A stretch of 36,455 nucleotides of DNA from a virus. Taxonomy: Duplodnaviria > Caudoviricetes. Location of the stretch: positions 1 to 36,455 of IMG/VR virus record IMGVR_UViG_3300027975_000009; one strand, written 5' to 3'. This document shows, piece after piece, positions 2,304-36,455 of the stretch. Position 1 is the stretch's first letter. Every line of letters begins with the position of its first letter. The position numbers and the translations under genes were made by a program. The notes under the pieces are model-generated. The model saw only the letters and a list, made by a program, of their open reading frames with translations, was not told where the DNA came from and made no database searches.

Positions 2304-2311
2304 TATCTTTG
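2304..2311 (+). promoter_or_regulatory. -7 promoter box TATCTTTG for the major capsid gene
   Basis: TAnnTTTG match ~100 nt upstream of the MCP start. Confidence 0.7.
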
Positions 2312-2324
2312 CAATTCTATGATG

Positions 2325-2404
2325 ATGTAGTGAGTGCCAACTTTATCGGCACAAAGTAGGCGCAACCTTCCGGCCTAATAACTGAAGGATCTTCCAAACT
2401 ACAT
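2325..2404 (+). promoter_or_regulatory. Structured 5' leader with pseudoknot (MCP)
   Basis: Stems ATGTAGT/ACTACAT, GTGCC/GGCAC and TAGGC/GCCTA; loop CCTTC pairs with downstream GAAGG. Confidence 0.6.
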
Positions 2405-2411
2405 TTCAATC

Positions 2412-3458
2412 ATGTCTATATCTCGCATTCTATCGGAGTGTCCTAATGTGCAAATGTCACTTAGCGAACTCTTTATCGAAGTTGGTCAGCGTGAGCAATT
2501 GCCTTTCTTAGAGTTTTTGCTTTCACCTGAAAACACTAAACTAATCCGCACTGAAGTTTCTCCAGGCGGTGGAAAATTAAAAACAGTTGAAGCACGTTGG
2601 ATTCAGCGTTTGCCTGAAACAGAAGTAGAAGAGGGTGGCGACATCCTTACTTGTACTTCAACCAACAACTACGGTGACAGCACAACAACTTACACAGTAG
2701 ATACAACTGACACTTACACTGCATCACAGCTTATCAATGCTGCTGACATCGCTCGCCATTGCCAAGAGAATTCTCGCTATGTGCTTGAGTCGGTTATGCG
2801 TTTGATGGATGTAATCGACCGCAAGGTTGCTTCTGCTGCTGCTGTTCAGGCTGTTGCTGACATCGGAAACTGGGGCACTGAAGTTGAAGGTTACTACACT
2901 GTAACTGGTGACTGCTTGCAAATTGCTACTCGCCAGACTGGCGGCCAAGCATTGAATGAGTTCGCACTTGCTGACATCCTTCAAGCAACTCGCATGGCTA
3001 ACTATCCAGGTGCGCCTGTGGTATTTGGTGGTGCTGAGATGCAGCGTTATGCTAATGCTGTGCAAGCTGGTTGCTGCACCCAGTTCGGCATCGACTTGTT
3101 GGCTATCAGCCAGCAGAACGGATTCGGCTTTGCTTACGATTCTCGCGTTGCTGCTGCTCAAGGTTCTCAGTTAAAGAACTTGGTGACAACTGCCGGAGCA
3201 ATCCAGTGGTTGTCTTTCAACCTTGCTGATTGGAACACTGGCATCACTCCTGTTGCTGGATCAAACTACTCTAAGACCTTGGTGTTCACACCTGCTGGAG
3301 TACCAGTTGATTTGACAATGAAGGATGACTGCGGAAACTTGTCAATTGTGTTGACTACAACTGGAAAGATTGTAACTCTTCCAACTGACATTTACGAAGC
3401 AGGCGACAAGTACGCTGGTGTTAACTATGTTAACTGTGTTCAGATTGCAAACCCGTAA
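2412..3458 (+). CDS. Major capsid protein
   Basis: 348 aa, follows the scaffold gene, has its own promoter and terminator, and shows biased GCT/ACT/GTT codon use typical of high expression. Confidence 0.8.
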   Translation: MSISRILSECPNVQMSLSELFIEVGQREQLPFLEFLLSPENTKLIRTEVSPGGGKLKTVEARWIQRLPETEVEEGGDILTCTSTNNYGDSTTTYTVDTTDTYTASQLINAADIARHCQENSRYVLESVMRLMDVIDRKVASAAAVQAVADIGNWGTEVEGYYTVTGDCLQIATRQTGGQALNEFALADILQATRMANYPGAPVVFGGAEMQRYANAVQAGCCTQFGIDLLAISQQNGFGFAYDSRVAAAQGSQLKNLVTTAGAIQWLSFNLADWNTGITPVAGSNYSKTLVFTPAGVPVDLTMKDDCGNLSIVLTTTGKIVTLPTDIYEAGDKYAGVNYVNCVQIANP

Positions 3459-3538
3459 TAGGGTCGGTAGGTTTACTCTCGCAAGCCGATGAGGACTTAT
3501 TGACCCAAGACGGATTAGATAATCTAACCACGCAATAA
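3449..3538 (+). other. -1 programmed ribosomal frameshift signal and 27-aa capsid extension
   Basis: Heptamer A_AAC_CCG 3449-3455, 5-nt spacer, long hairpin 3461-3506; -1 frame open to TAA 3536-3538. Confidence 0.7.
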
Positions 3539-26506: not shown

Positions 26507-28485
26507 AGTTTTTGATTGACGGCTTGGATAGGGGCCAGCCATTGAATCCGGAGGACTTTGGCATCACGATAAATGAAGATGATAGCATTGGAGCTCGCAT
26601 AGTTTCCTACGATGCCGAGCTAATCTTCGGAGGCGATGTGTTCACGTATCTTTACAGCAAGCTTGAAACAACTGGCTACTGCGAATTGGTGCAATGCTCG
26701 GTGCAATATCTTTGCCCATCAGGAACGTGGGAGCGATTGGTGGATGGGTACATCATTGCAACCGAATGCGCCTTCCTGCTTGACCGGTGCCAGGTGAAGA
26801 CCAAGCTTTATGATGAAAGCTTCAGCACCAAGATCAATAACAACAAAGCGATTCCGTTCTCAATGGATTTGACATTGTCAAAGAATGGAACGACAATCAT
26901 TCCGCCCACAAGAAAGACTTTGCGATTGTTCAATCCTGCCAATGGTGCAACAATTAATCCTCCTTCAATATGCTTTACTGTTTATGATACATTCACTCAT
27001 TTGGTGAATTGCATGAGTGATGGCTTGATTGATTTCCATTCTGATTTCTTTTTTATTCCATTTACATCAGCACAGCCTAACGTATTTGTTTACACTCAGG
27101 GCAATGTGATGCGCGGATTAATAGGCCAGGAGATTGTTGCAACCTTTGAGACCCTTTACAACGCTTTACGATTTAAACTGAATCTTGGAATTGGATTCGA
27201 AAGGCAATCTAATGGCAGGCCATTATTGCGCATAGAGCCAATTGCCTATTTCCAGCAAAGCACTCCATCGAGCAATTTGTATGATCAGCCAGACATCGAG
27301 ATGAAGTTCGATGTCTCAAGACTTTATGCAGCTGTGAATTTTGGCAGCAGTCCAATGCTTGAGGACTTTGAGTGCGATGGAGGCGAGACAGCCTGCTCAT
27401 TCGTGCAGACTCCATTCAGGGGATTCAGAGATGAGACATTCGGATTCATTGGAGAATGCAACTCATCGAATGTTTTAAGACTTAAAACTGATGAGATAGT
27501 ATTCGATACAAATGTGATTGAGGACGTTGTAAGATTCAACAATCAGAACTATGACAACAACGGCTTTGTGATTCAATCCGATGTTGTAACCTCATCAATC
27601 CTGCAAGCTTCTGAGGGAGATCCGTATTCAATTGGCGGTTTTGTTTATAATGATTTATTTAGAAACGAATCTGTTTCGGCAAATTGGATCAGTGGATATC
27701 CGAATTCGTTGCAATCATTTTTATCCGGCTTCGATCCTATATTGACTCAGTTTAATGCAAGGGCAACGGTTGACACTCAATGCTGGGATATTGATGACGG
27801 AGTATGGATTTCATACAACGAATCGACAGGAAATTATCTTTCATTCCCGAATGAGATAAGTGATGTAGGCAACAACTTCAACGGCACTGAGTATGTGGTG
27901 CCATTTACGGGGCTTTACACGTTCGTGCTTGTGGTGCAGTTCGATTCTGTATTCACAACTGGAAATAAGTTGAGCAAGGCAATCATTAGACACCAGACTA
28001 CTAACGATGTTGACATCGCATTCTATGAAGGAGCTGTTGTGACATCGACAACTGCAAGCTTTGTGCAGACTTTGGTGACAGCGCAATTCGTTTGCAATGC
28101 TGGCGATAAGATTAAAGCTGATGCTGCCGGTCAATTAACAGCAGCAGGCCCACCGGCACAACAGTGCATACTATCTCAATGGACCGATATTCCAAGCGGC
28201 ACAACCTTTAGAACTACATTCAGCGGAAACGGAATCCCATTGCTACCTTCAGAACTTCAGCCAGTCGACATCAACGATGTGCAGACCTATCTATACAAGT
28301 TCAAACGTCCTCTGACGATGGCAGAGATAAACGCCATTACAAGCGAACCATCGAAGCCAATTCTATTGGGTCGGAAAGATGATGTTCTTGCGGTTTCTCC
28401 GACCTACATCAAAGCAATCAACATTGAATCAGTCATGCGCAAAGGCGCGCAATTCGAACTAAGATCCAACAAGCTACTGCCATGA
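26491..28485 (+). CDS. Tail tip/hub protein
   Basis: Directly after TMP; beta-rich; internal YVVPFTGLYTF C1q/TNF-like segment. Confidence 0.7.
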   Translation: MAAELKFLIDGLDRGQPLNPEDFGITINEDDSIGARIVSYDAELIFGGDVFTYLYSKLETTGYCELVQCSVQYLCPSGTWERLVDGYIIATECAFLLDRCQVKTKLYDESFSTKINNNKAIPFSMDLTLSKNGTTIIPPTRKTLRLFNPANGATINPPSICFTVYDTFTHLVNCMSDGLIDFHSDFFFIPFTSAQPNVFVYTQGNVMRGLIGQEIVATFETLYNALRFKLNLGIGFERQSNGRPLLRIEPIAYFQQSTPSSNLYDQPDIEMKFDVSRLYAAVNFGSSPMLEDFECDGGETACSFVQTPFRGFRDETFGFIGECNSSNVLRLKTDEIVFDTNVIEDVVRFNNQNYDNNGFVIQSDVVTSSILQASEGDPYSIGGFVYNDLFRNESVSANWISGYPNSLQSFLSGFDPILTQFNARATVDTQCWDIDDGVWISYNESTGNYLSFPNEISDVGNNFNGTEYVVPFTGLYTFVLVVQFDSVFTTGNKLSKAIIRHQTTNDVDIAFYEGAVVTSTTASFVQTLVTAQFVCNAGDKIKADAAGQLTAAGPPAQQCILSQWTDIPSGTTFRTTFSGNGIPLLPSELQPVDINDVQTYLYKFKRPLTMAEINAITSEPSKPILLGRKDDVLAVSPTYIKAINIESVMRKGAQFELRSNKLLP

Positions 28486-30110
28486 GTTATACCTCGATAC
28501 CTAACCAACCGATAATCTTCAATTCTATTTTGCCTGAAGGCTGCGAGGGCTGTGGCTCGGAGTATTCGCAGTTGGTAGATTTCAACGACCAATTATTCTA
28601 CCAACTTGAAGTAGGCGTTTGCGGCGTATCCAAAAGAGGAGACCAAATATTATTCGGTGATTGGACACAATCGGGAAGCACGATAACGGGAACGGGCAAT
28701 CTTGGTGGATATGTTGAAGGCCGAATACTTTATGACATCGTTCGCAATTGGAGAATAACGGTAACAATAGACACATATAACAGCGGAACATTATCTGTTG
28801 GAACGCTGGTAGGCACAACTGTGAATTTATCCGCACCGGGTACGCACACGTTTATAATCGACAATTATGACCAGACCAATAACGAAATTGCGTTCTTTTT
28901 CGCAGGATTGTCTGGAGATGAATTCGATGGCACATTCACGGTTGACCAAATTGAAACGTTAGCAAGCGGCTGGCTATTTACAGGATTGGTAGATGCGCAA
29001 ACCCTTGCGATAGTTCAAAGGTTTGACCCCGTTCTAACTTTAAGGGATAACTATCTAACGGCTGCAATCAACATGGCCGATTACGATATCGAGCCGGGCT
29101 GCTATCGGTTAGCGATTGCGGACTATTGCGAAAATACTTGCGGTCAGTATTTCATTTACAACCCGTTCTTCAATGGCCCGTCCTTAGCAAGCGGCTGGAC
29201 TTCGAATCCAATTGTTGGGTCAACAAATTGGACGGTAGGTAATGGCGAGGCAGCGATTGAATTATCAGGCACGAACTCAACTGAGCTGGTAAGTGTTACG
29301 GAGTTGTGCGAGGATAAGGATTACTACATCACAATCGTTGTAGATACCATTGACAACTGCACACTTGAGCTGCAAGTTGACGGCATCATATACGGCCCTA
29401 CAATAACAACGGCAGGCACGTATAGCTTTCTTATAACGCCAACAACAAACGGCGCGGTTAGCTTACTTGGAACATCCATAAGCGGTTCTCGAAATGAGAT
29501 AATCGTTACCAAGATAACCGTGCAAGCCGATAAGAACTGGGCAACCTATGACCAGTACAGCGACCTAATCAGCGTAGGGGATTTCTCGGACGATTGCAAG
29601 TTCTTCAAGCTTGAAGGCTGTAATGCGGAGAATCAATTCGGCCTCGCGTTTAATGGCACATCGTTCTTGCCTGGCATCCGTTTGGAGGGCCGCAGATTCA
29701 GAGCTCAGTACAACTCGGATGTGGACTTGTTCAGATATGCAAGCGGCAAGGCTGTGACATCCTATGCGGATATTCGCAAGCGTGTGTCCTTCTTCTTTGG
29801 CCAATTGCCTGAGTACGTATTCGACTTCCTTTCGATTATCACGTACTTCGACAACTTGTATGTGAACGGCGATTTGTATTCGCCAGCTGAGGCTGACTTC
29901 CCAGACATCGAGTACAACGATGCCAATGAACTTGGCTCCATCACCATCGACTTGTATAAGAAGAACGACAGGGTGCGTAAGACTGTCTGTACGGCAGCCG
30001 ATGCGAACTGCCTACCTTCGATATTGGATTTGGATACTGAGCCGTTTATATTGGCTCAGGATGGCGATCGCTTGCTAACACAAGACAACATCAATTTGTA
30101 TCAAGAATAA
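28482..30110 (+). CDS. Tail/baseplate protein with carbohydrate-binding-like inserts and C-terminal LLTQD motif
   Basis: Beta-rich, two Thr/Gly-rich inserts; ends FILAQDGDRLLTQDNINLYQE. Confidence 0.65.
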   Translation: MSYTSIPNQPIIFNSILPEGCEGCGSEYSQLVDFNDQLFYQLEVGVCGVSKRGDQILFGDWTQSGSTITGTGNLGGYVEGRILYDIVRNWRITVTIDTYNSGTLSVGTLVGTTVNLSAPGTHTFIIDNYDQTNNEIAFFFAGLSGDEFDGTFTVDQIETLASGWLFTGLVDAQTLAIVQRFDPVLTLRDNYLTAAINMADYDIEPGCYRLAIADYCENTCGQYFIYNPFFNGPSLASGWTSNPIVGSTNWTVGNGEAAIELSGTNSTELVSVTELCEDKDYYITIVVDTIDNCTLELQVDGIIYGPTITTAGTYSFLITPTTNGAVSLLGTSISGSRNEIIVTKITVQADKNWATYDQYSDLISVGDFSDDCKFFKLEGCNAENQFGLAFNGTSFLPGIRLEGRRFRAQYNSDVDLFRYASGKAVTSYADIRKRVSFFFGQLPEYVFDFLSIITYFDNLYVNGDLYSPAEADFPDIEYNDANELGSITIDLYKKNDRVRKTVCTAADANCLPSILDLDTEPFILAQDGDRLLTQDNINLYQE

Positions 30111-30115
30111 ATTCG

Positions 30116-30123
30116 TATATTTG
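30116..30123 (+). promoter_or_regulatory. -7 promoter box TATATTTG for the tail tube gene
   Basis: TAnnTTTG ~80 nt upstream of ATG 30205. Confidence 0.7.
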
Positions 30124-30134
30124 CACAGATCATC

Positions 30135-30201
30135 ATAGAGACGTAGGACTTAGTGAGCCATCCTATTCAACTGGCATCACACCAACAAATTAAATCTCTA
30201 T
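30135..30201 (+). promoter_or_regulatory. Structured 5' leader with pseudoknot (tail tube)
   Basis: Stems ATAGAGA/TCTCTAT and TAGGA/TCCTA; loop GTGAGCCA pairs with downstream TGGCaTCAC. Confidence 0.6.
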
Positions 30202-30204
30202 ACT

Positions 30205-30744
30205 ATGGCTTGTGTAAGCTACTGCGACTCTTCGCTACTTGATCACAACTTAGTAAACTGCAACGAATACAAGCTCGGTGGCGTTTCTGCGATTATCGTA
30301 GGAGCCTGTGGAACAGAACTTGTGAATCCTGAAGATGAGGCAGCACTTGAAGCATTGCTTTTGAATGGCACTGCAAAGCTCATCGAGGATATCCGCTTCG
30401 CTCTTCCTGCTGGTTCTCCGGTAACTGTTGACAGCCCAATCGGCTGCGGTACTCCTATTCGTATTAATGAAGACCGTACTGCAACCCTGTTTGATGCAAA
30501 CGTAACTGATGAAAACAATACTTTCTGGAATGATGTAAACAACCGCCGCATCGCATGGATACTTGCGTACATGTGCGACAGCGGAAAGGTGATATACATC
30601 GATCCACCACAAGGATTGACTACCTCAGCGAACTTCATCTTGCCTGAGCAGAACAATGAATTGCAGCGTTACGAAGTAACATTCTCATGGCGCGATAAGA
30701 ACATCCCAACACAATACGAGGCCCCTGCTGGCATCTTTGGATAA
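30205..30744 (+). CDS. Major tail (tube) protein (putative)
   Basis: 179 aa, acidic and beta-rich, LGGVSAI N-terminal and YEVTFSW C-terminal strands, own promoter and an MCP-like leader. Confidence 0.65.
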   Translation: MACVSYCDSSLLDHNLVNCNEYKLGGVSAIIVGACGTELVNPEDEAALEALLLNGTAKLIEDIRFALPAGSPVTVDSPIGCGTPIRINEDRTATLFDANVTDENNTFWNDVNNRRIAWILAYMCDSGKVIYIDPPQGLTTSANFILPEQNNELQRYEVTFSWRDKNIPTQYEAPAGIFG

Positions 30745-35718: not shown

Positions 35719-36455
35719 CTACTTGTGCTTAAATATTGACACGGTATTGCGTTCATTCGCTTTGAATTCCGTCACCACTTCAGGACCAGTTGTAAAGTCA
35801 TTAGCGAAGTGAGAATAAACCACATAGTTAAAGCTTGCCATGTCCATCGGTATTGATGCTTTTTGCACATTGAAATATGTTTCATTTGCCATGAGCTGAA
35901 AGAATCTTAGCGCAATAGCATAAGCACCACCAACAACACCACAATTCAACAGAGCCAAGCTTCTTGCATGTTTATACAAGGTCGTGTATTTATGGCTTTT
36001 GCAATGCCGCCATTGGTTTAACTTTAGCCAAGGGCTGGAAAGTGTCTGGCCTTTCTCATAGCCTACATATAGCAAATTCTCATCAACATCAAAAGGATTT
36101 CTAAGGACCTCAACATCGGTAGCATCCACGCACCATACATGGCTTGATCTATTCTTTTGGATGTAGTCCAACTGCATCAACCAGCGAAAGTCATTCGGGC
36201 TGAATTTATGGTCCGGATTTTCTATCTTTACAAATTCGGTCGTGCCTTGATTTTCAAAATCGCAATTGGTCAATATTACCAATCGAATGCCTAAATCTTT
36301 GCAGCTATTCATAAGTGGCAAAAGCGGATCCACTGCATTGGGCAATAAAGTTTTTCTCTGTGGATCAATCGAGTAATTAAAATAACTCGATAGCACATAA
36401 GGCTTTTGCAATTCGATGTCAGATTCTTTATAAGGAATGAAAGCTTTGCAATCTT
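35719..36455 (-). CDS. C-terminal half (second GT-A domain) of the junction-spanning glycosyltransferase
   Basis: Frame is open to the window end; VWCVDATDV, LNCGVVGG and DMASFN motifs. Confidence 0.85.
   Translation of the reverse strand, partial: DCKAFIPYKESDIELQKPYVLSSYFNYSIDPQRKTLLPNAVDPLLPLMNSCKDLGIRLVILTNCDFENQGTTEFVKIENPDHKFSPNDFRWLMQLDYIQKNRSSHVWCVDATDVEVLRNPFDVDENLLYVGYEKGQTLSSPWLKLNQWRHCKSHKYTTLYKHARSLALLNCGVVGGAYAIALRFFQLMANETYFNVQKASIPMDMASFNYVVYSHFANDFTTGPEVVTEFKANERNTVSIFKHK
36323..36455. repeat. Terminal direct repeat, right copy
   Basis: Matches 1-133 with two mismatches. Confidence 0.95.

Follow-up and report, generated by a model that had tools for sequence, protein, structure and literature searches.

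The leaders of the major capsid gene and of a probable tail-tube gene in this phage genome carry a feature that is larger than the one first described, comprising a new family of small pseudoknots and a reciprocal, covarying complementarity between the 5' segments of the two virion mRNAs. Modelling suggests that this complementarity may act as a switch, by which each message would expose the start codon of the other. The window, which is the whole stretch of 36,455 bases analysed here, is a complete virus record with annotated terminase, portal, tape-measure, primase and endolysin genes, and the positions of the leader elements within it are collected in Table 1. The start codons of the capsid and tube genes lie at 2412 and 30205, respectively.

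Table 1. Elements of the capsid and tail-tube leaders, and the genes that follow them, by position in the window
Feature	Position	Strand	Details
-7 promoter box, Bacteroidota type, capsid gene	2304..2311	+	TATCTTTG; start site predicted at 2316-2317
Capsid handshake segment	2316..2326	+	All 11 nt complementary to 30129-30139; a second pairing, in cis, covers the capsid AUG
Closing stem 5' arm, capsid leader	2325..2331	+	Partner 2398-2404; ATGTAGT/ACTACAT; clade-specific
Extra hairpin, capsid leader	2334..2352	+	GTGCC 2334-2338/GGCAC 2348-2352
Capsid pseudoknot (H-type)	2357..2388	+	Stem 1 TAGGC 2357-2361/GCCTA 2373-2377
Capsid pseudoknot stem 2	2366-2370/2384-2388	+	CCTTC/GAAGG; AA-containing loop 3
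AACTG, capsid leader	2380-2384	+	
Capsid initiation region, A/C-rich	2389..2411	+	Without Shine-Dalgarno sequence, A at -3; contains the closing stem 3' arm
Major capsid protein, HK97 fold, 348 aa	2412..3458	+	Foldseek E 1.8e-8
-7 promoter box, tail-tube gene	30116..30123	+	TATATTTG; start site predicted at 30128-30129
Tube handshake segment	30129..30139	+	Fully complementary to 2316-2326; shares bases with the cis closing stem (30135-30141/30195-30201)
Closing stem, tube leader	30135-30141/30195-30201	+	ATAGAGA/TCTCTAT
Tube pseudoknot (H-type)	30144..30180	+	Stem 1 TAGGA 30144-30148/TCCTA 30161-30165
Tube pseudoknot stem 2	30153-30160/30172-30180	+	GTGAGCCA/TGGCATCAC
Tube initiation region, A-rich	30181..30204	+	Without Shine-Dalgarno sequence, A at -3
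Probable tail-tube protein, 179 aa	30205..30744	+	Weak fold match; downstream of the tape-measure gene

Neither the capsid ORF (2412-3458) nor the tube ORF (30205-30744) had a match in a PHROG search. The tail-tube label of the latter is probable and rests on a weak fold match, the best Foldseek hit to tail-tube folds having E 1.8e-3 (probability 0.98) and none reaching E ≤ 0.001. A glycosyltransferase gene (phrog_1579), which alone among the main genes lies on the minus strand, was split over the two ends of the record (35719-36455 and 1-779), so the genome is probably circularly permuted. The end of the capsid gene (3449-3538, plus strand) contains A AAC CCG TAA, a slippery-type heptamer ahead of the stop, and 27 further codons in the -1 frame encode an acidic LLTQDG-like repeat that resembles the end of ORF 28482-30110. 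Extensions of 25-29 codons in the -1 frame were present in 50 of 67 relatives, with a few in the +1 frame instead, and this region is possibly a frameshifted capsid extension or a small separate ORF.

We inferred a Bacteroidota host from the TAnnTTTG boxes before both genes, the A at -3 relative to the start codon (86 of 90 capsid leaders and 64 of 79 tube leaders) and the best matches of the primase and terminase, which were to phages of Cellulophaga, Nonlabens and Flavobacterium. The sole full-length match of the capsid search in cellular genomes was a 5-kb contig (L248) of a Bacteriovoracaceae MAG, with a leader typical of the family; this contig is probably mis-binned, and would otherwise be at odds with a Bacteroidota host. 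Searches by tblastn with the capsid, the tube and a distant capsid (P0209) against 50,697 phage records gave no match. Four cultured Bacteroidota phages chosen by primase or terminase similarity (phi46:1, P12024L, 11b and mymlan6-1) had no capsid or tube homologue in a profile search and no match to the leader descriptor, and thus no cultured model was found.

All the pairings that the first-pass annotation described for the two leaders, together with the extra hairpin of the capsid leader and the AACTG, were found where it had placed them. Folding of the single leaders was only moderately better than that of shuffled sequences (z = -2.54 for capsid and tube alike), and support for the fold therefore comes from relatives. 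Of the loci retrieved, 90 of 99 for the capsid and 79 of 80 for the tube were kept, these having a complete start preceded by 100 nt or more of sequence. The stem 1 pattern TAGG-x..y-CCT (x and y paired), which was derived from the window itself, was present in all 169 leaders (90/90 capsid and 79/79 tube) and ended 33-46 nt before the AUG; the background for this pattern was 17 loose matches across the whole window on both strands. The fifth pair of stem 1 was C-G in all but one of the 90 capsid leaders, and was A-U, U-A or G-U in those of the tube.

Other parts of the motif as first proposed varied more. The common core had been given as GTAGG...CCTA, of which the TAGG/CCT stem was universal, whereas the full GTAGG occurred in 69/90 capsid and 60/79 tube leaders. 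The 7-bp closing stem was not a fixed part, since a Watson-Crick run of at least 7 was found in only 44/90 capsid and 11/79 tube leaders, nor was AACTG (26/90 and 7/79), of which AA alone was kept in 169/169. A hairpin of -3 kcal/mol or better stood at the place of the extra hairpin in 69 of 90 capsid leaders.

Stem 2 was examined by an alignment-free test on 45 loop types, in which the loop paired with its own downstream partner at -7.8 kcal/mol compared with -3.9 for other partners, and none of 100,000 permutations was as good as the real pairing; the own partner was superior to every dissimilar partner in only 15 of the 45 types. Two ungapped alignments, of 17 tube and eight capsid leaders selected for equal loop length, showed changes on both sides in five of six stem 2 pairs (tube; covariation 0.380, compared with at most 0.114 when slid) and in six of six (capsid). 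The covariation score was reached in 0 of 500 shuffles. Loop and stem 2 were otherwise almost fully variable, with 13 invariant columns among 37. Judged from these alignments, the conserved part of the leaders is an H-type pseudoknot with a covarying second stem, and the earlier observation that pairing is preserved while sequence differs was borne out. The proposal of a motif common to both genes held for the architecture and stem 1 but not for the overall sequence: a covariance model built from the 17 tube leaders matched six tube leaders (E < 0.02) but none of the capsid gene.

In two distant phages (31-37% identity) the fold was kept, with stem 1 as TTGCC/GGCA or TTGGC/GCCA in both leaders. 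These phages came from a narrower alignment (A6), which contributed two among 11 loci; broader alignments had no conserved seed, and searches for distant loci with P0188 and P0209 gave none. Eleven genomes scanned with a descriptor yielded 18 matches, 17 of them before capsid or tube genes, so that 17 of the 22 capsid and tube leaders were recovered. In the distant phage G005 a third match lay before a 75-aa ORF on the other strand. One capsid leader (L173:1412-1490) had two pseudoknots in tandem. In the clade of L042 and L130 the 5' arm of stem 1 was seen by eye to have a second complement near the start codon, in the capsid and tube leaders alike; pairing there would give another fold, in competition with the pseudoknot. 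In the L023 clade (L183:4689 and L186:3810) another AGG..CCT hairpin, with a strong loop-downstream complement, lay between the tube and capsid genes.

Small H-type pseudoknots with an A-containing loop 3 are features of the preQ1-I and SAM-II riboswitches, and the phage element resembles them in both respects. A ligand-binding aptamer of this type is nevertheless extremely unlikely here, as neither leader matched any Rfam family at E ≤ 10, loop and stem 2 vary almost throughout and the downstream genes encode virion proteins rather than metabolic ones. The window and nine related loci likewise gave no match at gathering score in Rfam 15, which includes preQ1, SAM-II and int-alpA, in keeping with the original statement that the family was not a recognized one. 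A ribozyme reading was ranked low, the consensus cores not being seen in the leaders.

The strongest sign of coordination between the two genes was one that the first-pass annotation had overlooked, namely the direct complementarity of the 5' segments of the leaders. Its suggestion of a link between capsid and tube genes is thus supported, although by this complementarity more than by the shared fold. In the window the two 11-nt segments, each just 3' of its TAnnTTTG box, are exact complements. Same-record capsid/tube pairs numbered 68: the locus lists supplied 37, a tube-gene search of 30 records supplied 11 (13 matches, two incomplete) and a capsid-gene search of 30 records supplied 20 (21 matches, one incomplete); four further pairs with one leader cut were excluded. 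In windows defined independently of the promoter, a Watson-Crick run of at least 8 was present in 61 of the 68 pairs.

Both boxes were present in 65 of the 68 pairs, which gave 35 distinct pairs of 18-nt segments. All 35 formed same-genome duplexes of -11.2 to -19.5 kcal/mol, whereas 414 cross-group pairs had a mean of -4.3 and a best value of -10.9 kcal/mol, none reaching -11.2. The 35 pairs represent only four linkage groups (28, 5, 1 and 1), and hence the exact group permutation can give only 1 of 24. Unrelated sequence solutions were found in L163/L195, L173/L199, L042/L130, L040/L108 and L170/L200. Among pairs lacking one or both boxes, L170/L200 had an 8-bp match and the distant pair L182/L203 a 10-bp match, with no promoter box found before the capsid-side segment of L182. 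When the partner was ranked among the 66-221 promoter-like, box-adjacent segments of each genome, it came first in six of eight genomes with the capsid segment as query and in seven of eight with the tube segment; the misses were one tie and one segment's own antisense strand, and three further genomes were not rankable. The best handshake partner was therefore the leader of the other mRNA in most genomes, and not a separate small RNA.

At capsid identities of 85-90% the sequence turnover of the segments was already complete, which is hardly compatible with a site read by a protein. This bears on the proposal that the complementarity is a DNA feature, for example an operator in opposite orientations at two late promoters, which would fit the overlap of the segments with predicted start sites, a common location of operators. 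The internal duplex mismatches (two G-U, two A-C and four other) do not discriminate in this respect, and so leave RNA and DNA pairing unseparated. The segments were, however, always complements and never the same strand (longest identical run at most 7 in 53 of 55 window pairs), and the chances of an operator appear slight. Complementarity, lineage turnover and within-genome specificity are established by sequence comparison, and the two mRNAs very probably pair with each other.

RNA libraries contained contigs of relatives on the capsid and tube genes (four of four runs, from three studies), and the first base of one contig falls at 2329, within the leader. The runs had been selected with the capsid stretch, the contigs show neither strand nor start and empty flanks prove nothing, so these data were not counted as support. 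The capsid handshake segment at 2319-2330 (plus strand) reads ATG ATG ATG TAG, an upstream frame of three codons that may be a simple mimic of the partner's start region. A short upstream frame near the segment was present in several relatives and absent from others.

The distant phage G005 (L181/L202) had both pseudoknots directly after an apparent promoter, with no 5' segment and no clear handshake. By eye, the loops of its two pseudoknots contain a 7-nt complement, which may be fortuitous or may represent a handshake made between loops. Retention of pseudoknots without a handshake in this phage is one of the observations that would suit a pseudoknot with the central regulatory role, to which a protein of phage or host would bind, either in autoregulation of the T4 gene 32 type or as a bS1 enhancer, with the handshake only co-localizing or fine-tuning the messages. 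The near-invariance of stem 1 in the near clade and its change in both leaders of distant phages, the tandem pseudoknots of L173 and the succession of pseudoknot and A-rich tract, as in the gene 32 leader (PMC3014915, in part), point the same way. Such a core would leave the inter-leader complementarity of 35/35 pairs unexplained; furthermore, the sequence of stem 2 is free and no candidate binding protein was identified, and we consider it improbable.

In folding of the window, each 5' segment paired with its own start region; the closing stems of the earlier reading are these cis pairings of the two handshake segments. Compared with versions whose first 13 nt were shuffled, 26/30 capsid and 20/27 tube leaders had a more closed start region, although the effect was significant (at most 10% of shuffles as closed) in only 16/30 and 9/27, among leaders that are mutually related. 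Tube segments had their best cis pairing with the start region of their own group in four of four groups. For the capsid segment, pairing with its own start was no stronger than with foreign starts in one group, and had only a slight advantage in a second.

Co-folding with the pseudoknot held fixed gave a favourable dimer in 35/35 pairs (mean -7.4). From monomer to dimer, the modelled unpaired fraction at -10 to +12 rose from 0.49 to 0.66 for the capsid and from 0.52 to 0.62 for the tube, and the start region opened by more than 0.1 in 27/35 capsid leaders, 15/35 tube leaders and at least one partner of 33/35 pairs; without the pseudoknot constraint the corresponding counts were 18/35, 16/35 and 28/35. 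Start unmasking by pairing in trans is thus moderately supported by these models, more clearly for the capsid than for the tube.

Antisense pairing usually represses, and pairing here might likewise repress or destroy the messages, as a brake that titrates excess partner. The duplex, however, lies well upstream of the start codons, no start region was closed by more than 0.1 in the 35 modelled pairs, and runs of 8-14 bp are short substrates for RNase III, which makes a brake very unlikely. Repression, a DNA operator and a riboswitch are improbable even when taken jointly.

A simpler reading would be one of stability, in which both 5' ends would be concealed within the mRNA duplex, nuclease scanning would be stopped by the pseudoknot and the cis stems would be incidental. 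The duplex started 5-6 nt past the box in 50/65 capsid and 40/65 tube leaders (transcription starts being predicted), a distance that fits Flavobacterium start sites, which are spaced 4-5 nt from the -7 box (PMC6847099, in part), and would therefore begin at the predicted first nucleotides of both messages. A parallel is hly-prsA2, in which one message is protected by pairing at its very 5' end (PMC8722363, in part); pseudoknots are known to block RNase E scanning (PMC9943677, in part), and the modelled opening of the tube start was small. Real 5' segments, however, closed their own starts more than shuffled ones in most leaders, and the tube segments paired best with their own group's start in every group, and both results speak against this reading. 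We regard stability as the sole function as possible but rather unlikely.

The mechanism that we favour is mutual activation of translation by mRNA-mRNA pairing, to which we would give about even chances. The capsid and tail-tube mRNAs, with inferred transcription starts at the handshake segments, would pair 5' end to 5' end in the cell; this pairing is predicted to lift the cis pairing over each start codon, and the unmasked starts would switch on both messages together. Such an unmasking switch is plausible, since translation initiation in Flavobacterium is tuned by structure near the start codon (PMC6847099, in part). The pseudoknot, between switch and start region, would be a constitutive module, most likely a block to 5'-end-dependent decay because H-type pseudoknots hinder RNase E scanning in E. 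coli (PMC9943677, in part); alternatively it might be a landing site for bS1 or the ribosome just upstream of a start without a Shine-Dalgarno sequence, as H-type pseudoknots are also high-affinity targets of bS1 (PMC10931766, in part). The presumed purpose would be to couple the output of the two highest-copy virion proteins, whose genes have separate promoters. A stricter version, which we put forward tentatively and with less than even confidence, is a reciprocal natural toehold switch in which both mRNAs are self-silenced and well translated only once paired, an RNA AND-gate that would balance heads and tails.

A literature search, which left most subscription journals outside its reach, found nothing on the pseudoknot motif or on pairing of capsid and tail mRNAs. 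In the tables of Fremin et al. (2023; PMC10690425, in part), an IMG/VR screen, none of six motifs or four contig names was matched. The pseudoknot may be among the unnamed candidates of that study or of the supplement of Weinberg et al. (2017; PMC5737381).

If the proposed mechanism is true, the rapid turnover of the 10-letter code would tie each gate to its own lineage, and co-infecting relatives or mismatched recombinants would not be cross-activated. Head/tail balance in tailed phages is usually ascribed to promoter strength and ribosome-binding strength, and a reciprocal, direct link between mRNAs would be a new answer to it. The system is small, with two leaders of less than 100 nt and natural compensatory variants, and lends itself to reporter assays in Flavobacterium; further gains would be orthogonal riboregulator pairs and a new pseudoknot family for a phylum whose ribosomes ignore Shine-Dalgarno sequences.

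In anti-antisense activation (DsrA-rpoS and RNAIII-hla) and in the synthetic toehold and crR/taR systems, an RNA acting in trans frees a start that is hidden in cis. The phage leaders would resemble these in that cis pairing is predicted to hide the start and trans pairing of the inhibitory strand to free it; in those systems, however, the activator is a separate small RNA and acts one way. Protein-coding mRNAs of linked function that pair in trans are exemplified by hly-prsA2 of Listeria monocytogenes and irvA-gbpC of Streptococcus mutans, and a count from 2020 gave only these two cases of full bacterial mRNAs acting in trans, both one-way (PMC8722363, in part). The phage pair is like them in that two coding mRNAs with linked functions carry segments complementary to each other, which are conserved here. 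Those cases are bacterial, with a 3' UTR or 5' UTR donor acting one way onto a target, and involve stability through RNase J (PMC8722363, in part), whereas the phage leaders both use their 5' ends, apparently reciprocally, and their segments also pair over their own start codons and are followed by a pseudoknot.

For the pseudoknot, the nearest likeness is the gene 32 leader of T4, T2 and RB69, in which a small two-stem pseudoknot and an A-rich tract likewise precede a highly expressed phage gene; the product of gene 32 is a single-strand binding protein and represses the message that encodes it (PMC3014915, in part), whereas the leaders described here serve two genes, with capsid and tail-tube folds. 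The pseudoknots that act as RNase E obstacles (PMC9943677, in part) or bS1 targets (PMC10931766, in part) resemble the predicted phage elements in being coaxial, with about 10-13 pairs, and in lying in 5' UTRs upstream of the coding region; the RNase E results were obtained in E. coli with engineered reporters, and both roles are carried over to the phage leaders by analogy. The phage system is a member of neither the anti-antisense class nor the hly-prsA2/irvA-gbpC class, having no separate small RNA and no one-way donor: each of the two mRNAs would be switch and trigger at once.
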